Part shown: positions 5,245-59,001 of the stretch, one piece after another
Layout: every line of letters starts with the position of its first letter
How positions within the stretch are numbered: the stretch's first letter is position 1
Assembly (NCBI GenBank): GCA_030390025.1
Contig: JASTWF010000335.1
Span: 62,001-126,000, forward strand
DNA: 64,000 nt
Origin: Squalus acanthias
Lineage: Eukaryota
Direction of reading: 5' to 3'
Notes under the pieces: model-generated
Seen by the model: only the letters and a program-made list of their open reading frames with translations
What the model was told of the DNA's origin: nothing
Databases searched by the model: none
Position numbers and translations under genes: made by a program

Positions 5245-8200
5245 CGACTGGGAGAGTAACAGGGAGACAGCGACTGGGAGGGCGCAACCGGGAGAGTGAT
5301 CGGGGGAGAGTGATCGGGGGAGAGTGATCGGGAGAGTGATCGGGGGAGAGTGATCGGGGGAGAGTGATTGGGAGAGAGTGATTGGGAGAGAGTGACCGGG
5401 AGAATGATCGGGAGAGAGCGACTGGGAGAGTGATCAGGGGAGAGTGATCGGGAGAGAGCGACCGGGAGAGTGATCGGGAGAGAGCGACCGGGAGAGAGCG
5501 ACTGGGAGAGAGCGACCGGGAGAGTGATCGGGAGAGAGCGACCGGGAGAGTGATCGGGGGAGAGTGATCGGGGGAGAGTGATCGGGGGAGAGTGATCGGG
5601 GGAGAGTGATCGGGGGAGAGCGATCGGGAGAGAGTGATAGAAACATAGAAACATAGAAAATAGGTACAGGAGTAGACTACTCGGTCCTTCGAGCCTGCAC
5701 CGCCATTCAATGCGTTCATGGCTGAACATGCTACCTCAGTACCCCATTCCTGATTTCTCGCCATACCCCTTGATCCCCCTAGTTGTGAGTGTTATATCTA
5801 ACTCCCTTTTGAATATATTTAGCGAACTGGCCTCAACAACCTTCTGTGGAAGAGAATTCCATAGATTCACCACTCTCTGGGTGAAGAAGTTCCTCCTCCG
5901 CTCAGTCTTAAATAGCTTCCCCTTAATCCTTAGACTGTGACCCCTGGTTCTAGTTTTCCCTAACATTGGGAACATTCTGCCCGCATCTAATTTGTCTAAA
6001 CCAGTCAGGATTTTAAATGTCTCTATAAGATCCCCCCTCATTCTTCTGAACTCCAGAGGATACAAGTTCGGTTGACCCAATCTTTCTTGATATGTCAGTC
6101 CGGCCATCCCAGGAATCAATCTAGTGAACCTTCGCTGCACTCCCTCAATAGCAAGAATGTCCTTCCTTAAGTTAGGAGACCAAAACTGCGCACAATACTC
6201 CAGGTGTGGCCTCACCAAGGCCCTGTACAACTGCAGCATCACCTCCCTACTCCTGTACTCAAATCCCCTTACTATGAAGGCCATCATTCCGTTTGCTTTC
6301 TTGACTGCCTGCTGCACTTGCATTCCCACCTTCAGTGACTGATGTACCATGACGCCCAGGTCTCGTTGCACCTCCCCTTTCCCTAATCTGCCACCATTCA
6401 GGTAATAGTCCGCCTCTCTATTTGTACCACCAAAGTGGATAACCTCACATTTATCCACATTGTACTTCATCTGCCATACATTTGCCCATTCACCCAACCT
6501 GTCCAAGTCACTCTGTAGCCTCCTAGCATCCTCCTCATTGTTCACACTGCCTCCCAATTTAGTGTCATCCGCAAATTTGGAGATATTACATTTAATCCCT
6601 TCGTCCAAATCATTAATATATAATGTAAACAGCTGGGGTCCCAGCACCGAACCCTGCGGTACCCCGCTGGTCACTGCCTGCCATTCTGAAAAGTACCCAT
6701 TTACTCCTACTCTTTGTTTCCTGTGTGCCAACCAGTTCTCAATCCACGTCAACACATTACCCCCAATCCCATGTGCTTTAACTTTGCTCACCAATCTCTT
6801 GTGTGGGACCTTGTCGAAGGCCTTCTGAAGGTCCAAAAAGACCACATCTACTGGTTCCCCCCCATCCACCCTATTGGAAACATCCTCAAAAAATTCCAGA
6901 AGATTTGTCAAGCATGATTTCCCTTTCACAAATCCATGCTGACTTGGACCTATCATGTCGCCACTTTCCAAATGGTCTGTTATGACATCTTTAATAATTG
7001 CTTCCATCATTTTACCCACGACCGATGTCAGGCTGACCAGTCTATAATTCCCTGCTTTCTCCCTCCCTCCTTTTTTAAAAAGAGGGGTTACATTGGCCAC
7101 CCTCCACTCCATCGGAACTGATCCCGAGTCTAAGGAATGTTGGAAAATGATCGTCAATGCATCCACTATTTCCAAGGCCACCTCCTTAAGTACTCTGGGA
7201 TGCAGACCATCAGGCCCCGGGGATTTTTCAGCCTTCAGTCCCATCAATTTCCCCAATACTTTTCCCGACTAATAAGGATTTCCCTCAGCTCCTCCCTCTT
7301 ACCAGATCCTCTGACCCCTTTTATTTCCGGCAGGTTGTGTGTGTCCTCCACAGTAAACACCGAACCAAAGTACTTGTTCAATTGATCAGCCATTTCCTTG
7401 TTCCCCATTACGACTTCCCCTGTTTCCGACTGCAGGGGACCTACGTTTGTTTTTACTAACCTCTTTCTTTTTACATATTTATAGAAGCTTTTGCAGTCCA
7501 TTTTAATGTTCTCTGCAAGCTTCCTTTCATATTTTATTTTCTCTGCCCTAATCAAACCCTTCGTCCTCCTCTGCTGAGTTTTGAAGTTCTCCCAGTCCCC
7601 GGGTTTGCTGCTACTTCTGGCCAATTTGTATGCAACTTCCTTGGTTTTAATACTATCCCTGATTTCCCTTGTTATCCATGGTTGAGCCACCTTCCCTTTT
7701 TTATTTTTACGCCAGACCGGGATGTACAATTGTTGTAGTTCATCCATGCGATCTCTAAATGTCTGCCATTGCCCTTCCACTGATAGCCCCTTAAATATCG
7801 GGGGAGAGTGATCGGGAGAGAGCGACTGGGAGAGTGATCAGGAGAGAGCGACTGGGAGAGAGCGACCGGGAGAGTGATCGGGGGAGAGCGACTGGGAGAG
7901 AGCGACCGGGAGAGTGATCGGGGGAGAGTGATCGGGAGAGTGATCGGGAGAGTGATCGGGAGAGTGATCGGGAGAGTGATCGGGAGAGTGATCGGGAGAG
8001 TGATCGGGAGAGAGCGACTGGGAGAGTGATCGGGAGAGTGATCGGGAGAGAGTGATCGGGAGAGTGATCGGGAGAGAGTGATCGGGAGAGTGATCGGGGG
8101 AGAGTGATCGGGAGAGAGTGATCGGGAGAGAGCGACTGGGAGAGTGATCGGGAGAGAGCGACTGGGAGAGAGCGACCGGGAGAGTGATCGGGAGAGAGCG

Positions 8201-9290
8201 ACCGGGAGAGAGCGACCGGGAGAGTGATCGGGAGAGTGATCGGGAGAGTGATCGGGAGAGAGTGATCGGGAGAGAGCGACTGGGAGAGTGATCGGGAGAG
8301 AGCGACCGGGAGAGTGATCGGGAGAGTGATCGGGAGAGAGTGATCGGGAGAGTGATCGGGAGAGTGATCGGGAGAGTGATCGGGAGAGAGCGACCGGGAG
8401 AGAGCGACCGGGAGAGTGATCAGGAGAGAGTGATCGGGAGAGTGATCGGGAGAGAGTGATCGGGGAGAGTGATCCGGGAGAGTGATCGGGAGAGTGATCG
8501 GGAGAGAGTGATCGGGAGAGTGATCAGGAGAGAGTGATCGGGAGGAGTGATCGGGAGAGTGATCGGGGGAGAGTGATCGGGGAGAGTGATCGGGAGAGAG
8601 CGACTGGGAGAGCGACTGGGAGAGTGATCGGGAGAGTGATCGGGAGAGTGATCGGGAGAGTGCGACTGGGAGAGTGATCGGGAGAGTGATCGGGAGAGTG
8701 ATCGGGAGAGAGAGATCGGGAGAGTGATCGGGAGAGAGTGATCGGGAGAGAGTGATCGGGAGAGTGATCGGGAGAGTGATCGGGAGAGTGATCGGGAGAG
8801 TGATCGGGAGAGAGCGACTGGGAGAGAGTGATCGGGAGAGAGCGACTGGGAGAGTGATCGGGAGAGAGCGACTGGGAGAGTGACTGGGAGAGAGCGACTG
8901 GGAGAGAGTGACTGGGAGAGTGATCAGGAGAGTGATCGGGAGAGAGCGACTGGGAGAGTGATCGGGAGAGAGCGACTGGGAGAGTGATCGGGAGAGAGTG
9001 ATCGGGAGAGTGATCGGGGAGAGTGATCGGGAGAGTGATCGGGAGCATGATCGGGAGAGTGATTGGGAGAGTGATCGGGAGAGAGCGACTGGGAGAGTGA
9101 TCGGGAGAGAGCGACTGGGAGAGTGATCGGGAGAGAGTGATCGGGAGAGTGATCGGGAGAGAGTGACCGGGAGAGTGATCGGGAGAGAGCGACTGGGAGA
9201 GCGATCGGGAGAGTGATCGGGAGAGAGCGACTGGGAGAGTGATCGGGAGAGAGCGACTGGGAGAGTGACCGGGAGAGAGCGAGAGAGGGG
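5245..9290. repeat. 12-14 bp minisatellite (GGGAGAGTGATC / GGGAGAGAGCGACT)n, interrupted by a CR1 at 5637-7800
   Basis: Tandem units on both sides of the CR1. Confidence 0.95.
5637..7800 (-). mobile_element. CR1 LINE, 5'-truncated, ORF2 RT (frameshift near 7250)
   Basis: ORFs 7244-7780 and 5736-7256 with complete RT motifs; (tttctatg)n tail at 5637-5660. Confidence 0.95.
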
Positions 9291-13140: not shown

Positions 13141-13881
13141 CATTCAATGAGATCACGGCTGATCTGTCACCTAACTCCCTATACCCGCCTTCGGCCCATA
13201 TCCCTTAATACCTTTGGTGCACAGACATCTATCAATCTCTGATTTATAATGAACAACTGACCCAGCATCAATTGTTTTTTGCGGAAGAGAGTTCTGTTGT
13301 GGCTGCCGCGGATCACGAATGGAGGCCGAGTCAACATGTGAAACACACAGGGGGAAAAATTCAGTTGGTTGCGCCTCCCGTTAGCGTTTAAGAGGGCGCT
13401 AATGGGACGCAAAGCATCTAGCGCCCGGGCGCGGCGAAGTTTGCGCCGCTCGCGAAATTAACTAGACATTTTGCGGCGGCGCTAAACACTACCGCCACGA
13501 ACTCCTGTGCCGGCAGATCGTGACGTCAGTCGAGTGCGCAACGCCCCGGTAGCGCCCTGGAGTGGATATTGAGTGGCGCCCCCTTCCTTACCGCCTGCCA
13601 CTAGCAACGACAGGTTGAGGGGAGCGTTCTGCTGTCATGAAGGGAAAGGGGGAGCGCTATTTAAAGGTGACCACTTCCTGCCTTTTATTGTTGGTGCCAT
13701 TTTTGAACGACACATTCTGAGAGAGAGAGAGAGGCTTCTGGAGACATTCAACGCTGTGTGAAGGAGTTTTGGGTACTGAGCAGCACTTTGCAGGTTCATT
13801 TTGATTTGCCATTCCTTGTATCGATTTAGAAGAGACTGTGGGGGCTGCACTCTGAGTTCTTTGCCTCGTACTGCTCCATTG

Positions 13882-15370
13882 CGCGAGCAGGGTGGCGTTG
13901 GCGAGCGCGGTCTTGGTGGAGTCGAAGGCGGCTGACGCGTCTGCCGTCGATTCGACCGCTATCTTGCCGCTCCTGCCCCAGAGGGCTTCATACAGGGGCC
14001 TCATGAGGGAAGCCGCTTTGGGGATGAAGCGGTTGTAGAAATTCACCATCCCGAGGAACTCCTGGAGGCCTTTGATGATGGTGGGGCGGGGAAATTGTTG
14101 GACGGCCTGCACCTTGGTGGGCAGGGGAATGGCCCCAGCATGGGTGATGTGGTGGCTGAGGAAGTCGATCTTGTCCAGGCCGAACTGGCATTTGGCTGGG
14201 CTGAGGATGAGCCCGTGGTCGCTGAGGCGCCCGAACAGGATGCGAAGGTGTTCGAGGTGTTCCTGCTTGGAGGAACTGGCTACCAGGATGTCGTCCAGGT
14301 AGACGAACAGGAACTTCAGGTCCCGAAGGACCGAGTCCATGAGCCGTTGGAATGCCTGGGCCGCGTTTTTGAGGCCGAAGGGCATCCACAGGAACTTGAA
14401 AAGGCCGAAGGGGGTGATTACGGCCGTCTTGGGGATGTCCGCGGGGTGGACGGGGACTTGGTGGTAGCCGCACACCAGGTCGACCTTGGAAAAGACTGAG
14501 CGGCCGGCCAGTCTAGCCGAGAAGTCCTGGATGTGCGGCACGGGGTACCGATCAGGGGTGGCGGCGTCATTGAGGTGGCGGTAATCCCCGCAGGGGCGCC
14601 AACCTCCGCCTGGTTTGGGGGCGATGTGGAGTGGGGAGGCCCAGGGACTGTTGGAGCGGCGGATGATGCCGAGCTGCTCCATGGTGGCAAACTCGGTCCG
14701 CGCGATCTCCAGTTTGGCCGGGTCCAGCCTGCGGGCGTGGGCGTACACTGGGGGGCCTGTGGTGGGGATGAAGTGTTCCACCCCGTGTTTGGCGGCCTCC
14801 GCGGAGAAGGTCGGATTGGTAAGGGCCGGGAATTTGGCCAGGAGTGCCGAGTAGTCATCCGTGGCCCGGGCGTGGCACTGTGACGCCATGTCGGCGGGTT
14901 GACGGGGGGCCATGGCGCCCAGGATGGGGGACATGGTGTTCATGTCCACGAGGCAGTGTTGAGGGATGACTACCAGTAGGCCGTGGGCGCACAGGAAATC
15001 CACGCCAATGAGAGGGGAGAGCACCTTGGCAGTGATGAACTCCCATCGGTAGCGGCGACCAGCGAGGTCGAGGATGACTGTGCGGGTGCCGTACGTCGGG
15101 ATGTCCGAGCCGTTAGCAGCAGCCAGCGCCGGTCCTCGTTTGCCCTTTTGGATGTCGAGGGAGGAGGCCGGGATGATGCTGTGCTGAGCTCCAGTGTCGC
15201 ACAGGAACCGATGGCTGGTTTTGTCATCCGTGACGTACAGCAAGGAGCCCGCGTGGCCCACGGCCATTGCGGGGGCTGGTACGGGGGCGGACTTGAAAGA
15301 GCAGGGAGGTGTGCACCGTTGTGCCCTGGCGCCGAACCGTGCGTGGTAGTAACAGTGACACGGGTTAGTG
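13882..15370 (-). pseudogene. pol: Gypsy pol: aspartic protease plus reverse transcriptase, truncated before RNase H
   Basis: Protease FLCDTGAQ; RT motifs SPWASP, CGDYR.LN, MPFGLKNA, YLDDILV. Confidence 0.92.
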
Positions 15371-15947
15371 GGGTGCGAAGGCCCCGTGAGCCCGGTGGCT
15401 GGGCCTTGTGGCCGCGTGGTGGCCGGTGAGGGGCTGCCAGGTCCGGAGTGACGTCGCGGCTGGAGTGAGCGGACAGCAGCTTGTCGGCCTCATCGGCCAG
15501 GGCTTCCAGGTCCGTGAGGCCGGACGCCACGATCGCTGGGCGGATGCTGAGAGGTAGCTGGCGGATGAACAGCGTGTGGAAGAGGGATCCGGGTGGGCTC
15601 TCGTCGGTGAGGGAGAGCATGTGGGAGAGGAGGTCTGACGGTGAGGCATCACCGAGGCCTGGAAGGGCGAGGAGGTGGCAGTTTCGCTGGTATGTCGAGG
15701 CCGTAAATTTTTTAAGGAGCGCGGCCTTAAGATATGCGTACTTGCCCTCCTCTGGTGGGTTCTGCAGCGCTGTCCAGACCTTCGTAACTGTGGAGCTACC
15801 GAGTGATGTGACGAGGTAGTCATACTTCGTCCCATCTGTGGTGATGTTTCGCAGCCGGAAACGCGACTCGGCTTGGAGAAACCAGGCTTCGGGCTGGTTT
15901 TCCCAAAACTCCGGCAGTTTCACGGAAACTGCGTTCGTGTCCGCCAT
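15370..15947 (-). pseudogene. gag: Gypsy gag
   Basis: N-terminus MADTNAVSVKLPEFWENQPEAWFLQAESRF is typical of Gypsy gag. The CYYHARFG..A.RC..PC knuckle lies in the next frame, near 15300-15360. Confidence 0.85.
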
Positions 15948-16042
15948 TGCAGTGCTTGGAATACGTTCTGAGCGTCGGGGTCACCAATGTTGTGGCTGCC
16001 GCGGAGCACGAATTGAAGCCGAGTCAACATATGAAACACATA

Positions 16043-18104: not shown

Positions 18105-19080
18105 TGAAAGAATATTTACTAGTCCTTGCCCCTTTGGGGCTATCCCAGATCAGGCGTATTTCTCAGACGTTCACTTTCAACTAAAGTTTAAGGTAACCGA
18201 ATCCTAAAGACGCTTAATTGGGTCTAAAGGTCCGGGCTATCTCTCCCTAAAGGAAAGGAACAACCCAAGAATGTTGCCGTCCTCCAGATAGCACTTTTTT
18301 AATAAGTTTTAGCCAGACTGTAACATCCCGGATATTATGAGGGTCCGGAGATCTCCCCTCAGAAATGTACCTCTCCACCAAACAGTGTCCAGAGATTGGT
18401 TTCGCGAGTTATTGATAGAGAAGACTTATGTGAGACAATTCTAAAAATATATAGAGATTTATTAAAATAATCAACTTGCAATTTACAGTTGGTGAATCAG
18501 TCAATCGCACCGTTAACAGTTCTAAAAAGAGAAAAAATACGATCTTATTTTTAACAGAGAATCTTACTTTTAAATCCATCAATATCAAATTACCTTCGAT
18601 CCCCGAGGTACAAAGAGTGTAAGACTACAGAGCTGCCTCTGTAGTCGAGAATCGCTTTGCCCGATTAAAGCGAGTCTGATATCCCATTTGAGACTTCAAT
18701 ATTTGTACCCTTTTTCAGTTGTATTCCTTACGGTTTTTGCTGATCCAAGTTAATTATCACTATTCATCTTTCTGCTGACTTCCGCAATTCTTTACTGCCG
18801 CATCAGCTTGTAATATTCCAGATTCTGCTGCATCTCCAGGTGTTCTGGCCTCACCATATAGAAGGTGTGATGGGCAGATGTCCCTTATCTCATGTGTCAT
18901 CTTTAAGAGGTGTAATCAAGATCATTTATCCAGGGTTGACCATTGTTCTGTTCCACCCATTCTACTGTTTTAATAAGGTTATTTATTCAGAGTCAACAAC
19001 TGTCTTATCTCAACAAGGCCAGAATTCTTTCATAAGATAGTGTATTTTTTGAAAAAAGTTATATGGCTTATTCCTTCACA
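18105..19080 (-). repeat. Provirus 3' LTR (976 bp)
   Basis: Direct repeat of 24338-25070. Preceded on the minus strand by the PPT; AATAAA (-) at 18458-18463. Confidence 0.92.
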
Positions 19081-19090
19081 CCCCCCTCTT
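19081..19090 (-). other. Polypurine tract AAGAGGGGGG
   Basis: Directly abuts the TG of the 3' LTR on the minus strand. Confidence 0.85.
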
Positions 19091-19568
19091 GACCAAAAAA
19101 TGAGCTCGAGCATCAAGGGCAGGGTTTGGTCAATGTTTCAAATAAGGTTGCAATAGTACATTAAACCACGTTAATTTCACGAGATTTACAGGACCCTAAT
19201 CATGTGCTACATTCAAATTCCTCGAAGTCATCCCCAGGACCATGTTTTGCCTTTTTTTATAATTGGACAGAAATTAAAAGAATGATAGGTACATTGTCAT
19301 GCAATTAGCGAAACAATATGTAATTGGAATGTCCAGTTGGCAGATGTACGTTCCGTAGAGGGGAGTTCTTCATACGAGACGTTGTTGGAGCTGGCTGAAG
19401 CTTGACCAAATCTGCAATTTTCTGAAGGCTGTGATCTTGATCGCTGTTCCGTTGATCCAGCGTGAGGACAGATTCTGCTAGTATCAGAGAAGACTGTTGG
19501 AGCGAGCGGCTGTTCATTGATGTCGAACGTTTCTTGTGACGTCGGGAAGAGTCACTTGATTTTATAAA

Positions 19569-19959
19569 TGATGTGGAGATGCCGGTGTTGGGACTGGGGT
19601 GGACAAATGTGAGAAGTCGCACAACACCAGGTTATAGTCCAACAGTTTTAATTGAAATCACGAGCTTTCGGAGCTGCTGCTCCTTCGTCAGGTGAAGTGA
19701 AGAGATGCATATAGGCACAGCATATATAGTCAGAGAACACAGCCAGGTGACTACAGTTAATCTTTCTAACTGCCCTTTATCACACCTCGGCAGAGAGATA
19801 ATCACAGCAATCAAAGGTGTGGATGGTGTCCTGACTATATATGCTGTGCCTATATGCATCTCTTCACTTCACCTGACGAAGGAGCAGCTCTCCGAAAGCT
19901 TGTGATTTCAAATAAAGCGGTTGGACTATAACCTGGTGTTGTGCGACTTCTCACATTTT
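19569..19959. mobile_element. Non-autonomous Penelope-like pseudo-LTR insertion with inverted arms and two hammerhead motifs
   Basis: Inverted arms at 19605-19733 and 19831-19958; homologous to the Penelope 3' end at 42060-42283; TSD ATTTTATAAA at 19559-19568 and 19960-19969; absent from the paralogous segment near 22005. Confidence 0.8.
19868..19904 (+). ncRNA. Minimal type I hammerhead ribozyme motif (second copy on - at about 19658-19695)
   Basis: TCAC-CTGACGA-aGGAG cagct CTCC-GAAA-GCTT-GTGA: conserved core, stem I, stem II and palindromic stem III. Confidence 0.65.
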
Positions 19960-20711
19960 ATTTTATAAATTCCGTAAAAGATTGATTTAATGGTACAACC
20001 GCTCTATACACATCCGATTGGTATACCGGGAGAGAAGTATTATCAAACTGTTCCTCAAACGATGATGAACCATTAGAGAGGTAAGTTCTGTCATCAGGAG
20101 ACTTTGGTTTTCGATTGTTTTCTTAAAGGTCTTGCCAAAAGCTCAGTTGATTCCTTCTCCATCTGTAGTGCGTTCCTCCTTCGTTGAAGTAACTTGTTGG
20201 TCTTTACTTGTTTCGGTTGTGGCTTTTTGCGAAACCAATTTCTGAGGCATTGCCAAGCATTGTGTGGAGGAGTCGGCGACACCGTCTGGCTGACCGTTGT
20301 CAGTAGTTCGATCGCATCTGTTTCCGGTGTCGTGCTCCAAGCTGGGTCTTGGAAGACAGTGTACGACTGCACCTTGTATTGTTGCTCCATTCCGGTATCC
20401 CGCAGGACATCTTTTTAGATTGTCTATGGAGACAGTTTTAAGAATATGCTTGCCATTCGGCTGATTAAAGGATATTTCAACAGTTCTTTCGTTAATAACG
20501 GAACGTATTTGAACAGGTTTTTTCCACTTAGGTCTTAAACTAGGTTTTTGCTCAAACTTCTTTTCCTCTACCCATTCTCCTGCTAGGGGTTGCCATGCTT
20601 TGTCAATTTTTTCTGCTGATTTGTCTCCCTTATCCTCTGATCAATTTGATGAATCTCATCTGTTATTTCTTTTTTTTAATCTAACTGTTGCTGTCGGGTC
20701 AAGGAATCAGA

Positions 20712-21438
20712 GGGCTGGATTTTGATACTGGGGCGGGTTGGGGTCGTGTTATCCACCCGCCTGCAATTGGATGTGGGAGATTGATGCAATTTTCACTTAA
20801 TTGGGCAATTGAGTTCCAGCATGTGGGAACCCATGACCCAATTAGTGGTTTCAGTCTGAAAGTCGCCTCTGATGATGTCATCATTGCTGCTGCATTGAAG
20901 GTCTTCAGAGGCTACCTGGCCTTTGCTGTGAGAGGACCTGGATGCAAAATGAGCAGCATCTGAGAGAGAGGGAGAGAGAGAGAGAATTTTTTTTTTGCAT
21001 CCAGGTCCTCTCACAGCAAAGGCCAGGCAGCCTCTGAAGACCTTCAATGCAGCAGCATCAGAGGCGACTTTCAGACCTAATACTACTACTACCTTCATCA
21101 CATCTCCGTTGTAGTAGTGGATCTGCAGCTGATAGTCAGCTATCCACTTGTGTTCCCGCCAGGTTTCACTGGCGTGTTTCACCTCAGGCGTGCTTCACGT
21201 GGGAAAAGGGTTAAACTAGCTAAAACGTTTCAAAATGGCATTACAGAGCCAATTTAGGGCTTGTTAAGGGCTTTAATGGCCTCTCCCGCCTCTTGGAGGC
21301 GGGACGGAGTCGGGAACACCGCGACCGATTTTGTCAAAATTGCGTGGAGGCGGGATCAGGTCCGCCCGCCACTTTTCGCAATTTTAACCCCCCACACACC
21401 TCCAAACCCGCCTCCACGGGTCATTAAAAATCCAGCCC
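20712..21438. mobile_element. MITE with GGGCTGGATTTT...AAAATCCAGCCC TIRs (PIF/Harbinger-like)
   Basis: 12-bp perfect TIRs; sister copy at 58272-59001 has a 3-bp TTT TSD. Confidence 0.85.
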
Positions 21439-21439
21439 A

Positions 21440-22434
21440 ATGTAATTAGAATGTCCAATTGGCAGATGTACGTTCTGTAGAGGGGAGTTCTTCATACGAG
21501 TCAAGGAGACGTTGTTGGAGCTGGCTAAAGCTTGACCAAATCTGCAATTTTCTGAAGGCTGTGATCTTGATCGCTGTTCCATTGATCCAGTGTGAGGACA
21601 GATTCTGCTAGTATCACAGAATCCCCACAGTGCAGATGGAGGCCATTTTGGCCCATCGAGCCTGCACCGACACATATCTCACCCTATCCCCGTAACCCCA
21701 CGTATTTAATCCCCCCTAACACTAAGGGTCAATTTAACATAGCCAAATTAACCTAACCCGCACATTTTTGGACTGTGGGAGGAAACCGGAGCACCCGGAG
21801 GAAACCCACACAGACATGGGGAGAATGAGCAAACTCCACACAGACAGTCACCCGGGGCCGGATTCGAACCCAGGTACCTGGCGCTGTGAGGCAACAGTGC
21901 TACCCACTATGCCACCGTGTTGCCCCTATCAGAGAAGACTGTTGGAGCGAGCAGCTGTTCATTGATGTCGAACGTTTCTTGTGACGTCGGGAAGAGTCAC
22001 TTGATTTTATAAAGTCCGTAAAAGATTGATTTAAAGGTACAACCGCTCTATACACATCCGATTGGTATACCGGGAGAGAAGTATTATCAAACTGTTCCTC
22101 AAACGATGATGAACCATTAGAGAGGTAAGTTCTGTCATCAGGAGACTTTGGTTTTCGATTGTTTTCTTAAAGGCCTTGCCAGAAGCTCAGTTGATTCCTT
22201 CTCCATCTGTAGTGCGTTCCTCCTTCGTTGAAGTAACTTGTTGGTCTTTACTTGTTTCGGTTGTGGCTTTTTGCGAAACCAATTTCTGAGGCGCTGCCAA
22301 GCATCGTGTGGAGGAGTCGGCGACACCGTCTGGCTGACCGTTGTCAGTAGTTCGATCACATCCATTTCCTGTGTCGTGCTCCAAGCTGGGTCTTGGAAGA
22401 CAGTGTACGACTGCACCTTGTGTCGTTCCTCCAT
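21440..22434 (-). pseudogene. env: Foamy-like env remnants (N-terminal piece plus SU/TM junction); duplicate copy at about 19320-20390
   Basis: An open frame from about 22165 down reads ..FIKSSDSSRRHKKR/STSMNS.SLQQSSLILAESVLTLDQ.NSDQDHSLQKIADLVK. By eye this aligns with the foamy Env furin site and TM start (RKRR/SVDNNYAKL..LTGAVQTLSQ..D..LQ). Confidence 0.65.
21617..21926 (-). mobile_element. tRNA-derived HE1/V-SINE-like SINE, full length
   Basis: Minus-strand A-box TGGCATAGTGG and B-box GGTTCGAATCC; V-domain CTCCGGGTGCTCCGGTTTCCTCCCACAGTCCAAA; CR1-like tail; TATCA TSD at 21612-21616 and 21927-21931. Confidence 0.85.
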
Positions 22435-22439
22435 TCCGG

Positions 22440-23640
22440 TATCCCGCAGGACATCTTTTTAGATTGTCTATGGAGACAGTTTTAAGAATATGCTTGCCAT
22501 TCGGCTGATTAATCTGTCTTTCAACAGTTCTTTCGTTAATAACGGAACGTATTTGAACAGGTTTTTTCCCACTTCGGTCTTAAACCAGGTTTTTGCTCGA
22601 ACTTCTTTTCCTCTACCCATTCTCCTGCTGGGGGCTGCCATGCTTTGTTTGTCAATTTTTTCTGCTGATTTGCCTCCATTATCCTCTGATCAATTCGATA
22701 TATCTCATCTGTTACTTCCTTTTTTTAAATCTAACTGTTGTTGTCGGGTCAAGGAATCAGAGAGTGTAGAGGCAATAAAAGAACTATGGGTAAGCGGTGT
22801 ATGCATCTCAACCCCATACATCAGATAATATGGAGTTTTAGGGGACACTGTCCCTGATGCAGATGCGGGCACATTATTAAGTGATAGCTGCACCTCCGGA
22901 ATGACGGTGGTCCACTTATTTCCCCTGATTCTCAACAGTTTGACCAATAGCTTTTTTACTTCCTGGTTTTTACGTTCCACCAGCCCCGCTGATTGCGGAT
23001 GACGTGGTGTGCTGTGCTCTTACCCAATCCCTTTGTTCGCAGTAGTCTTTGAAGACCTTGGAGACAAAGGCTCTGCCTTGATCGGAGTGTAAGATTTTGG
23101 GTGCACCAGCTACAGTAATTATGTCAGTAATAGCCCTGGCGAGTGCGTTTTCCGAAACAGTTTTTGTGGGGACCAGCCAGCAGAAGGAAGTGCATCCATC
23201 TACACAAACGAGAACATGTCTGTGTCCCAAAGATGGGGGAAGTGGTCCAATGATGTCAATAAAGAATTTTCCCATTGGTTCATCAGCTTTCACAGGAGCC
23301 AATGGTGGTGGCTTAATTAGTGAGGACTTATTGGCTAAATTGCATGGCTCACAATTTGCCATGTATGTTTTACAGACCTTAAGCATGCCTGGTCACCAAT
23401 ATAAGGGGGTCAATTTGCAGAATGTTGTTCTAGCACCAAAATGTGCTTGACTTATGTCCTCGTGAGCTTCTTTTACAAGCTGTTCTCGTTTGTTTCTTGG
23501 GGGTACCTCTCGGTTTCCCTTGGGCAACTTAACTGGCACAATACCCGTAGGGGTTTCCGAGTAAAAGTACTTTGATGGATATCCTGGTGGATTCTCTTTT
23601 GTTGGGTCCAACAGCTGAATCAGTTCCACATCCTCATTAG
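22440..23640 (-). pseudogene. pol: Foamy-like integrase (N-terminal extension, HHCC, DDE core, C-terminal domain) with stops and frameshifts
   Basis: Reads GYPSKYFY..VPPRNKREQLVKEAH..AHFG..LYW*PGM..CEPC; KFFIDIIGPLPPS.G..VLVCVDG; LHSDQGRAF; HSTPRHPQSAGLVERKN; WQPPAGEWV..LRPKW..TVSIDNLK. All resemble prototype foamy virus IN as I recall it. Confidence 0.9.
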
Positions 23641-24073
23641 CTGCCCGTTCTGTCCTAGTGATAACACTGATATTGGCAGGCCCCTCTCGAGGGGGTGTCA
23701 TGCAGACCGAACGTTTTGCTTGTTCGTCTGCAAGACTGTTGTCTTTTGAGTGTACTGTCCCAGTGGTATGCCCATTTACATGAATCACCTGACAATTCTG
23801 TTTCTCCATCCTCGAACGGAGAATGTCTTCCCACAATGACTTACGTTTTATGGGTTTACCCTTATGATTGGTAAAGTTTGTTTGTTCCCAGAAAACTAGA
23901 TCTTGGTAATATCCTCTTTTACAATAGTCACTATCTGTACAGATTAATGTGGGTTTAATAAGGTCTGCCTTTTCTAAAGCATACCGTAGTGCTGTGGCTT
24001 CAGCATATTGCGCTGTCTTATGGCCAAGGGTTCCTAATAAAAAGACTTGGCCATTTCCGACAGGGTTTGCCAT
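23640..24073 (-). pseudogene. pol: Retroviral RNase H (N-terminally truncated) in a 226-aa ORF starting at ATG 24073
   Basis: Reads LGHKTAQYAE..ICTDSDY..FW..NFTNHKGKPIKRKSLW..IHVNGH..NSLADEQA. The first catalytic Asp motif is missing. Confidence 0.85.
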
Positions 24074-24318
24074 TTCGTCAGGACCTAACCTCGGTTAGGA
24101 TTTAATATGAACTTTATAAGAAATTTCTAGACCTCAATGGTATATTGAGGGAGTTCTGATTTAAGTTCTACAAGGCCTGATCAGGGACTTGTCATCTCTA
24201 GAGACTTAAATCTGGGTCTTAGCACCACTGTCAGTAAAACACTCCTTCCGTACTTAACAACCTACGAGATGGATATAGATATAAATATAGGTATAGGGTT
24301 CTGCATCAACTTGTTATC

Positions 24319-24335
24319 ACACACGTTGGTCGCCA
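24319..24335 (-). other. Primer binding site, tRNA-Lys1,2-like (TGGCGACCAACGTGTG)
   Basis: Lies 2 nt after the 5' LTR CA end and is close to the foamy PBS TGGCGCCCAACGTGGG. Confidence 0.8.
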
Positions 24336-24337
24336 AC

Positions 24338-25070
24338 TGAAAGGATATTTACTAGTCCTAGCCCCTTTGGGGCTACCCCAGATCAGGCGTATTTCTCAGA
24401 TGTTCACTTTCAACTAAAGGTTGAGGTAGCCGAATCCTAAAGACGCTTAACTGGGTCTAAAGGTCTGGACCATCTCTCCCTAAAGGAAAGGAACAACCCG
24501 AGAATGCTGCCGCCCTCCAGATAGCACTTTTAATAAGTTTAGCCAGACTGTAACGTCCCGGATATTATGAGGGTCCGGAGATCTCCCCTCAGAAATGTAA
24601 CTCTCCATCAAAGAGTGTACAGAGATTGGGTTCGCGAGTTATTGATACAGAAGACTTTTGTGAGACAATTCTAAAAATATATAGAGATTTATTAAAAGAA
24701 CCGACATGCAATTTACAGTTGGTGAATCAGTCAATCGCAACATTAACAGTTCTAAAAAGAGAAAAAATACGATCTTATTTTTAACAGAGAATCTTACTTT
24801 TAAATCTTAACTTCGCTACAGTATTACAGCTCTTAAAATTTTCTATACAGGATATCAATCAATATCAAATTACCTTCAATCCCCGAGGTACAAAGAGTGT
24901 AAGACTACAGAGCCACCTCTGTAGTCGAGAATCGCTTTACCCGATTAAAGCGAGTCTGATATCCCATTTGAGACGTCAATATTTATACCCTTTTTCAGTT
25001 GTATTCCTTAAGAATTCTTTCATAAGATAGTGTATTTTTTGAAAAAGGTTATATGGCTTATTCCTTCACA
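24338..25070 (-). repeat. Provirus 5' LTR (733 bp; lacks about 290 bp of U3 present in the 3' LTR)
   Basis: Aligns to 18105-19080; TATAAAT (-) at 24981-24987 and AATAAA (-) at 24688-24693. Confidence 0.92.
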
Positions 25071-40469: not shown

Positions 40470-42575
40470 TGGCATAAAAATAAAACAAAAAAAGGTGACT
40501 CAACCGTGGCTAACAAAGGAAATTAGGGATAGCATAAGATCCAAGGAGAGGACATATAAATTGGCCAGAAAAAGCAGCAAACCTGAGGATTGGGAGCAGT
40601 TTAGGATTCAGCAAAGAAGGACAAAGGGATTAATTAAGAGGGGGAAAGTAGAGTATGAGAGTAAGCTTGCAGGGAACATAAAAACTGACTGTAAAAGCTT
40701 TTATAGAAATGTGAAGAGAAAAAGATTGGTGAAGTCAAGTGTAGGTCCCTTGCAGTCAGAATCAGGGGAATTTATAATGGGGAACAAAGAAATGGCTGAC
40801 CAATTAAATACATACTTTGGTTCTGTCTTCACAAAGGAGGACACAAATAACCCCCGAGAGATGTCGGGGAACATAGGGTCTAATGAGAGGGAGGAACTGA
40901 AAGAAATCAGTATTTGGAGGGAAATAGTGTTAGGGAAATTGGCGGGATTGAAGGCCGATAAATCCCCAGGTCCTGATAATCTACATCCTAGGGTACTTAA
41001 GGAAGTGGCCCTAGAAATAGTAGATGCATTGCTGGTCATCTTCCAAATTTCTATAGACTCTGGAACAGTACCCATGGATTGGAGGGTAGCTAATGTTACC
41101 CCACTATTCAAAAAAGGTGGTAGAGAGAAAACAGGGAATTATAGACCGGTAAGCCTGACATCGGTAGTGGGGAAAATGCTAGAGTCCATTATAAAAGATG
41201 TAATAGCAGAGCACTTGGAAACAGTGACAAGATCGGACAAAGTCAACATGGATTTACAAATCTACTGGAATTTTTTGAGGATGTAACTGGTAAAATAGAT
41301 AAGGGAGAACCAGTGGATGTGGTGTATTTGGACTTTCGGACACTCCTGCCTGGCGATTGTTGCGCGGTGTCCGTTCATACGTTGTCGCAGTGTCTGTATG
41401 GTCTCGCCGATGTACCATGCTCCGGGGCATCCTTTCCTGCAACGTATGAGGTAGACAACGTTGGCCGAGTCACATGAGTATGTACCATGTACCTGGTGGG
41501 TAGTGTCCTCACGTGTGATGAAGGTATCTGTGTTGATGATCTGGCATGTCTTGCAGAGGTTGCCGTGGCAGGGTTGTGTGGTGTCGTGGTCGCTGTTCTC
41601 CTGAAAGCTGGGTAATTTGCTGCGAACAATGGTCTGTTTGAGGTTAGGCGGCTGTTTGAATCGCCAGGCAGGAGTGTTCCCTCCCAGTCGGGGAACACTT
41701 CAGCAGTCAAGGACATTCAGCCTCCGATCTGTGGGTAAGCGTTCTCCAAGGCGGCCTTCGAGACACACGACAACGCAAAATCGTCGAGCAGAAACTGATA
41801 GCCAAGTTCCGCACCCATGAGGACGGCCTCAACCGGGATCTTGGGTTCATGTCATGCTACATGTAACCCCACCTGACGTAGAGTCATCCAGACTCGAGTC
41901 GTCGTTGGCTTGTTCTCTCTACACAGATGCGGCCGGACCTGCTGTGATTTCCAGCAAAAACAGTTTCTTGTTTTCGATACAGACCCCAGCATCTGCCACA
42001 TTGACCCCTTGTGACCCCACCTCATTGTCTTTGATGTAATGTTTTCCTGACTGACCTGTTTGGACACCATCCACACCTTTGATTGCCGTGATTATCTCTC
42101 TGCCGAGCTGTGATAAAGGGCAGTTGGAAAGATTAACTGTAGTCACCTGGCAGTGTTCTCTGACTATATATGCTGTGCCCATATGCATCTCTTCACTTCA
42201 CCTGACGGAGGAGCAGCGCTCCGAAAGCTTGTGATTTCAAATAAAACTGTTGGACTATAACCTGGTGTTGTGCGACTTCTCACATAAGGATAAGGGGTAA
42301 GACATTTAGGACTGAAATGAGGAGGAATTTCTTCACCCAGAGAGTGGTGAACCTGTGGAATTCTCTACCACAGAAGGTAGTTGAGGTCAATTCATTAAAT
42401 ATATTCAAGAAGGAGTTGGATATATTTCTTAAAGCTAAAGGTATCAAGGGATATGGGGAGAAGGCAGGGACAGGGTACTGAATTTGGATGATCAGTCATG
42501 ATCTCATTGAATGGCAGAGCAGGCTCGAGGGGCTGAATGACCTACTCCTGCTCCTATCTTCTATGTTTCTATGTA
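40470..42575 (+). mobile_element. CR1 fragment (40470-41338 and 42284-42575) split by a Penelope-like insertion
   Basis: CR1 ORF2 stops at VVYLDF and resumes near IRGK..RTEMRRNFF, then 3' UTR. Confidence 0.88.
41339..42283 (+). mobile_element. Penelope-like element 3' end: GIY-YIG endonuclease (5' part inverted) plus 3' UTR/pLTR with hammerhead-like motifs
   Basis: Minus 41341-41658 reads YSCDSANVVYLIRCRKGCPGAWYIGET..LRQRMNGHR. Plus 41659-41866 reads IARQECSLPVGEHFS..EQKLIAKFRTHEDGLN. CTGACG..GAAAGCTT at about 42200-42232. Confidence 0.85.
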
Positions 42576-53496: not shown

Positions 53497-53696
53497 NNNN
53501 NNNNNNNNNNNNNNNNNNNNNNNNNNNNNNNNNNNNNNNNNNNNNNNNNNNNNNNNNNNNNNNNNNNNNNNNNNNNNNNNNNNNNNNNNNNNNNNNNNNN
53601 NNNNNNNNNNNNNNNNNNNNNNNNNNNNNNNNNNNNNNNNNNNNNNNNNNNNNNNNNNNNNNNNNNNNNNNNNNNNNNNNNNNNNNNNNNNNNNNN
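53497..53696. other. Assembly gap (200 N)
   Basis: Run of n bases. Confidence 1.
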
Positions 53697-58271: not shown

Positions 58272-59001
58272 GGGCTGGATTTTGATACTGGGGCGGGTTG
58301 GGGTCGTGTTATCCACCCGACTGCAATTGGATGTGGGAGATTGATGCAATTTTCACCTAATTGGGCAATTGAGTTCCAGCATGTGGGAACCCATGAACCA
58401 ATTAGTGGTTTCAGTCTGAAAGTCGCCTCTGATGATGTCATCATTGTTGGTGCATTGCAGGTCAGAGACTGCCTGGTCTCAGAGACTGCCTGGCCTTTGC
58501 TGTGAGAGGACCTGGATGCAAAATGAGCAGCGTCTCAGAGAGAGAGAGAGAATGAATTTTTTTTTCCATCCAGATCCTCCAAAGGCCCTGGCAGTCTCTG
58601 AAGACATTCAATGCAGCAGCATCAGAGGTGACTTTCAGACCTAATACTACTACTACCTTCATCACATCTCCGTTGTAATAGTGGACCTGCAGCTGATAGT
58701 CAGCTATCCACTTGTGCTCCCGCCAGGTTTCACTGGCGTGTTTCACATCAGGCGTGCTTCACGTCGGAAAAGGGTTAAACTAGCTAAAACATTTCAAAAT
58801 GGCATTACAGAGCCAATTTAGGGCTTGTTAAGGGCTTTAATGGCCTCTCCCACCTCTTGGAGGTGGGACGGAGTCTGGAACACCGCGACCGATTTTATCA
58901 AAATTGCGTGGAGGCGAGATGGGATGGGACCCCCGAATCTGCAACTTTAACCCCTCACACGCCTCCAAACCCGACTCCATGGGTCATTGAAAATCCAGCC
59001 C
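58272..59001. mobile_element. MITE, same family as 20712-21438
   Basis: Same TIRs and internal sequence; TTT TSD in the host CR1. Confidence 0.88.

Follow-up and report, generated by a model that had tools for sequence, protein, structure and literature searches.

A probable remnant of a foamy-type Env in an internally deleted endogenous retrovirus of a cartilaginous fish

An infectious retrovirus is distinguished from an LTR retrotransposon by its Env, which in the endogenous foamy viruses of coelacanth, amphibians, reptiles and birds is recognisably foamy, according to the available parts of the reports (PMC6955096, 10.1101/2020.12.18.423569). Foamy-like pol is also described from cartilaginous fish, namely in CmiFLERV of the ghost shark, where pol was the only gene detected in the accessible part of the paper (PMC5512871), and in ERV-Spuma.0-Sca of the catshark, whose env was annotated by position: in the part of that source available, the consensus carries an env coding sequence (6989-8314) that does not overlap with pol (ending at 6865) and for which no foamy Env domain is named (PMC10699275). 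In contrast to such elements, a foamy fusion-peptide match in cartilaginous fish bears on the age of the foamy fusion machine. No foamy-type shark Env is reported in the available portions of PMC8227577, 10.1101/2021.11.23.469661, PMC8922424 and PMC4422223, and a literature search, with most subscription journals and the supplement alignments of 2017-2021 outside its scope, returned no report of a foamy fusion-peptide match in this group of fish. Here, we analysed one 64-kb stretch of Squalus acanthias DNA (the window, to which all coordinates refer), in which we saw one deleted provirus of a foamy-type family and no undeleted copy. This provirus contains a short stretch that we read as a dead env remnant from an endogenous foamy-type retrovirus, with a probability of roughly 0.88.

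The provirus and its pol remnant

The provirus spans 6,964 nt (25070-18107) on the minus strand and is internally deleted, with an LTR at each end. Its general features are:

24340..25070, minus strand: 5' LTR (TG...CA), 36 mismatches to the 3' LTR over 681 aligned nt
24320..24337, minus strand: primer binding site (PBS) of the foamy (tRNA-Lys) type, starting 2 nt past the LTR
22187..24094, minus strand: pol remnant with RNase H and integrase (IN; N-terminal part, core and SH3), its frame broken by stops and frameshifts
19081..19090, minus strand: polypurine tract (PPT), with GGGTG spanning the junction with the 3' LTR
18107..19080, minus strand: 3' LTR, ~290 nt longer in one part than the 5' LTR and without 50 nt present there

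Besides the RNase H and integrase, the foamy hallmarks of this provirus are a tRNA-Lys PBS, the GGGTG junction and 4-nt flanks. The PBS agrees with its foamy counterpart in 13 of its initial 14 nt and in 14 of 18 overall, and the foamy PBS was present in all six natural foamy genomes checked, while GGGTG at the PPT/LTR junction is known from foamy viruses and fish foamy-like ERVs (PMC5210030, in the part available). CCCT lies outside each LTR end as a 4-nt flanking repeat, in a low-complexity tract that makes this duplication weak evidence. The ~290 extra nt of the 3' LTR correspond to 19020-18731, and the LTRs also contain an internal partial repeat (18105-18730 and 24730-25010), visible as a second blastn match with 79% identity over 281 nt. 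From the divergence between the LTRs (K2P 0.055), the insertion would be very roughly ~55 million years old if the rate used in PMC10699275 is applied, or ~125 million years old with the one implied by a table in PMC4422223, as far as these sources were available.

The pol remnant gave its best PDB matches with foamy Pol (E 4e-19) and PFV integrase (E 2e-28), which identifies the nearest solved relative rather than a position in a tree, as the PDB is poor in fish and loki proteins. Pfam recovered RNase_H, rve and SH3_11, and the identity to simian foamy Pol was 37-43%, compared with 56-91% for mammalian foamy viruses among themselves. Comparison with foamy proteins within the provirus found no gag, protease or RT upstream of the pol remnant, and 18 gag/tas/bet ORFs compared with the provirus gave nothing better than E 0.09, with ~310 nt left before the PPT. 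Searches for relatives were negative in viral contigs (with the IN of the window) and in metagenomes (with the RNase H ORF), and a protein search with the RNase H ORF returned 768 candidates, none of which scored. Among the sequencing runs listed, 20 of 24 rows, from six organisms and seven studies, contained 24-40% of the sampled words, which is only a lead, and no RNA run was listed among them.

Elsewhere in the window, a gypsy-like gag-pol retrotransposon remnant with long open frames lies at 13657-15980 on the minus strand, with an RT region only 26-27% identical to foamy Pol. The window also contains many CR1-type LINE fragments, minisatellites of 33, 37, 38, 42 and 44 nt, long tracts of purines or pyrimidines and, near 53500, an N gap.

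The env frames in two copies and the 98-aa ORF

Downstream of pol, the candidate env sequence occurs twice, as copies A and B:

22138..22434, minus strand: 98-aa ORF, probable env 5' stub by its position; ATG 22 nt past the 'DNLK' motif of IN, in the +1 frame
21927..22166, minus strand: C-terminal end of SU, basic site RRHKKR and first TM residues of copy A, in a frame different from that of the 98-aa ORF
21617..21931, minus strand: SINE-like insertion of ~315 nt in the fusion-peptide region of copy A, missing from copy B, TGATA at both sides
21440..21614, minus strand: remaining TM start of copy A and a short tail, 29 codons to a stop at 21527-21525
20712..21438, no strand assigned: non-autonomous DNA-transposon-like element of 727 nt, exactly between copies A and B, with a 12-nt perfect terminal inverted repeat
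19318..20711, minus strand: copy B, which repeats the 3' end of IN, the env stub and the pieces of the SU end and TM start; 42 mismatches to copy A over 1,003 aligned nt
19570..19970, no strand assigned: hairpin-forming insertion of 401 nt with inverted arms (69 and 58 nt), interrupting the SU end of copy B, TTTATAAAA at both sides
19398..19526, minus strand: TM start of copy B without interruption (fusion peptide and beginning of HRA), the top-scoring Env remnant

The original prediction, made from the sequence, had described an ATG-less minus-strand frame from about 22165 with three N-glycosylation sequons and a basic cleavage site. Such a frame does exist: it opens at 22166 and could be traced through the basic site, the predicted peptide itself beginning at 22139 and running past this site to ~21927. 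All three sequons (NGS, NTS, NQS) were found, and sequons together with the SU end were not significant on their own against the whole-Env profile, where 141 and 355 of 2,000 shuffles scored as high; a sub-profile picked for that region was marginal at best (41/2,000), and a protein search with the SU-end fragment produced 32 candidates and no scored match. The basic stretch RRHKKR is present in both copies, but it has His at P4 in place of the canonical R-X-K/R-R, so the consensus pattern misses it; the basic residues at P1, P2, P5 and P6 would fit a looser furin rule.

In copy A, the frame is split by an insertion of ~315 nt, as predicted; the insertion has a GC-rich start and motifs resembling A and B boxes by eye, and is a putative SINE. 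The short tail beyond the stop of copy A has no detectable similarity to Env. In copy B, the basic site and the next 43 codons are unbroken (19577-19389), with the hairpin insertion sitting just upstream of the site. This insertion had been predicted to be a Penelope end, and the 401-nt hairpin is real, but the label was confirmed neither by Pfam, which returned nothing for the ORF of GIY-YIG-like look adjoining a 96% similar locus at 42062-42285 (a similar ORF reached only E 0.28), nor by Rfam, which found no hammerhead in the insertion and only a below-threshold microRNA hairpin match. The hairpin is near-perfect and has a motif resembling by eye the minimal hammerhead ribozyme of Penelope elements, and the end of a Penelope-like element is a plausible identity.

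The predicted duplicate at 19400-20100 turned out to be an internal duplication within the same provirus and not a second provirus. At 22762-19318 there is a 1.0-kb tandem duplication, with the terminal-inverted-repeat element sitting precisely where the two copies meet and without a short target duplication; a second copy of the 727-nt element lies at 58272-59001 (90%). The arrangement fits unequal crossing-over between two insertions of this element, or aberrant transposition. The difference between copies A and B is 4.2%, near the LTR divergence of 5.3%. Of 204 codons in their env frames, 5 show a synonymous and 10 a non-synonymous difference, with no sign of constraint, and from these sequences there appears to be no sign of co-option. 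The junction between the frame of the 98-aa ORF and that of the SU end lies between about 22166 and 22138 in both copies; because it is common to them, the deletion that joined the frames is older than the duplication.

The 98-aa ORF overlaps the IN end as predicted, by 248 nt, compared with 44-116 nt in 13 natural foamy genomes. Across the stub, the IN frame of copy A has no stop for 82 codons (22187-22434), and in copy B it runs to the same stop. In the natural foamy genomes, the env ATG is found 13-25 nt past DNLK in 12 of 13 cases, and in the +1 frame in all 13. An open frame of 98 codons has a probability of ~0.003 by composition. What argues for the ORF being the probable 5' end of env is its position and frame, and its proposed resemblance to a foamy leader peptide did not hold: 1,536 (one copy) and 1,139 (the other) of 2,000 shuffles scored as well against leader residues 1-65, and there is no hydrophobic segment, the best 19-residue hydropathy being 0.36 versus 2.6-3.4 in natural leaders. 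In the foamy leader, the WxxW motif falls among roughly the first 15 residues (PMC7828637, in its available part), and natural Envs have it at residues 6-12 in 15 of 16 cases. The ORF has Trp at 18, 46 and 52 and no WxxW, the paired Trp (AWQRLRNWF) proposed as a leader sign being the residues at 46 and 52, spaced by 6.

We consider the 98-aa ORF to be, with about two chances in three, the cytoplasmic start of env, cut before the membrane span. The strongest alternative, which we regard as unlikely, accepts the SU/TM piece as env and sees in the ORF a separate small accessory gene between pol and env with the tandem stops as its natural end. The two stops do terminate the ORF in both copies, it has none of WxxW, hydrophobic segment or leader similarity, and ORFs between pol and env occur in teleost elements (PMC5210030, in the part available). 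However, the position and frame of its ATG copy the foamy env start, the env of PpERV-1 likewise has no WxxW in that same part of the source (PMC5210030), and the SU-end frame opens 28 nt before the stops, too close for an env start, so that a junction is needed anyway.

The match to the start of foamy TM

Profiles were built from natural foamy genomes and their Envs (9, then 16 Envs), one of which was confirmed as PF03408. With the whole-Env HMM, this site came first among 1,710 six-frame chunks covering the window, at columns 563-609 (the SU/TM boundary) with both the 9 and the 16 Envs, with a window-wide E of only 1.3 and 0.7, respectively. The 63-aa piece of copy B matched this HMM at columns 564-607 with P 9e-5 and none of 2,000 shuffles scored as high, while copy A with X at the insertion was equalled by 10 of 2,000. 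In addition, an ungapped 38-column profile was made from 16 natural TM starts, limited to the post-cleavage segment with the basic residues left out; the segment was set after the first HMM match, though at the place named by the original prediction. Its score of 24.4 for the remnant ranked first among 127,768 six-frame windows (next 11.2) and first among 1,488 dibasic sites (next 5.1), and was attained by 4 of 5,000 shuffles; on the same scale, natural Envs score 96-123. The 38 post-cleavage residues align without gaps to the 16 natural foamy Envs with 5-11 identities, which is a distant relationship, and the alignment of the remnant to simian Env at the SU/TM site is gapless as well.

The match lies in the register given by the L..V.TL.Q....D..LQ spacing that had been proposed for the start of foamy TM, and the stretch after RRHKKR is supported, as far as sequence comparison goes, as a homologue of the beginning of foamy TM (fusion peptide/HRA). 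The comparison with a foamy Env profile, put forward as a check with the prediction, gave a mixed outcome, with the first rank among the 1,710 chunks on one side and the window-wide E of 0.7, an hhalign probability of 9.6% (E 0.003) for remnant versus foamy Env and no Pfam hit on the other. An HMM of the post-cleavage part alone ranked the site seventh among 4,260 chunks, with 57 of 5,000 shuffles as high. Pfam returned no Env family, including PF03408, at the curated cut-off for nine fragments (four from the env region), although a natural Env used as control reached 1,688 bits to PF03408. A PDB sequence search with the copy-B ORF had no matches at E 10, and neither the TM piece nor the 98-aa ORF had a usable match in the ESM Atlas. 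Such blank library scans are expected, because the piece is short and distant. The sole match in 1.84 billion representatives (E 7e-4) was an unrelated helical-repeat protein and was rejected as chance. The 30 proteins retrieved with the Env profile shared 45-99% identity with the simian query, and none was a distant relative. Downstream of the match, none of the six frames resembles the rest of TM, including 'NWTF' and the Cys-rich stretch, and the best 19-residue hydropathy there is at most 1.37 (2.6-3.4 in natural leaders), with no membrane span.

That env is instead of a lokiretrovirus or paramyxovirus-F type, with the foamy TM likeness stemming from a shared class I fold, seems very improbable to us. 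In the available parts of the sources, a structural relationship links foamy Env to F proteins (10.1101/2024.02.09.579661) and an RNase H group is common to loki and foamy viruses (PMC7947760), and our scoring was decoy-free, the Env profiles covering foamy Envs only; nevertheless, the IN is foamy-type here, while loki IN groups with CGIN1 (PMC7947760, same part), Pfam gave no Fusion_gly (PF00523) match, albeit with short fragments, and the post-cleavage residues start polar, as in foamy TM. Equally improbable is that the frame is non-coding or accessory-gene debris with a chance dibasic site before an amphipathic stretch, since the window-wide E of 0.7, the blank libraries and a probability of ~0.009 per try for an open 80-codon frame are opposed by a first rank among 127,768 windows, far ahead of the second, straight after a dibasic site and with the strand and location expected for env within a foamy provirus.

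Decay of the provirus and comparison with known systems

Under our preferred reading of a dead foamy-type env, the intact ancestor would have encoded a foamy-type Env, a class I fusion protein, from an ATG within the integrase tail, and a furin-like protease would have cleaved it at RRHKKR, freeing the fusion peptide and allowing spread as an enveloped virus. A first deletion of ~400 codons would have taken out the bulk of SU along with the first membrane span, so that the 98-codon stub became fused, in a different frame, to what remained of SU, and a second one would have eliminated most of TM together with any accessory genes; gag and PR-RT would also have been lost, and the internal duplication would have followed the first deletion. 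The insertions are later additions to the provirus. Upstream of the cleavage site, ~98 + 65 codons are left where foamy Env has ~570, and of some 417 TM codons ~43 survive, so ~80% of env is absent, plus all gag and PR-RT. Such a remnant is unable to anchor or fuse, and drifts neutrally.

TM homology downstream of a foamy-type pol on the same strand bears out the predicted infectious ancestor, and we therefore infer that the lineage was an enveloped retrovirus. An infectious ancestor does not imply that infection brought in the present copy, which may have come from the copying of an env-less defective genome. The parts kept are the 5' end, the 3' part of pol, the PPT and the LTRs (see 24337-24030 and 19398-19090). 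Because they resemble CAS-I and CAS-II, the cis sequences that foamy genomes need for packaging (PMC7828637, in its available part), and are kept as in a foamy vector, the gutted form was possibly a defective genome copied by a helper before integration.

From its sequence, the locus is best filed as the remnant of a foamy-type ERV, with membership of the tetrapod/coelacanth clade unproven, because it has no canonical cleavage site, WxxW or membrane spans, and RT is missing. We put at slightly below even the odds that it was a genuine foamy virus like those of tetrapods and coelacanth, with foamy IN, pol/env overlap and fusion peptide, distinct from the described shark and teleost foamy-like ERVs. 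If so, either foamy Env would date from the base of the jawed vertebrates or a foamy virus would have crossed into sharks from another vertebrate class, and the remnant would provide a deep outgroup for the link between Env and paramyxovirus F. The match suggests that an enveloped foamy-type virus infected cartilaginous fish too, and although the remnant is dead and short, it has its worth as a probe for longer natural copies.

Among the known systems, CmiFLERV and ERV-Spuma.0-Sca share with this locus a foamy-like pol in a cartilaginous fish (PMC5512871, PMC10699275, available parts); ERV-Spuma.0-Sca was compared by description, three short motifs of the provirus being absent from the supplement file of PMC10699275. 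The teleost elements DrFV, PpERV and AcERV resemble it in the Lys PBS, the GGGTG junction, the 4-nt target duplication and the absence of WxxW, but differ in an env without foamy homology detectable by BLAST or HMMER and in extra ORFs between pol and env (PMC5210030, available part). The tetrapod and coelacanth Envs, also compared by description from the accessible parts of their reports, match over the full length (~36-37% for bird and snake), as opposed to ~45 codons here (PMC6955096, 10.1101/2020.12.18.423569). Relative to foamy Env gp130 (PF03408; gorilla SFV structures in 10.1101/2024.02.09.579661, in the part available), the remnant differs in its 5-11 of 38 identities, the His at P4, the absence of an N-terminal WxxW, the longer overlap with pol and the loss of the bulk of both SU and TM along with the first membrane span, whereas both have an env ATG that lies, in the +1 frame, within the integrase tail, and a basic SU/TM site directly followed, in the same register, by a fusion peptide/HRA with a polar start.
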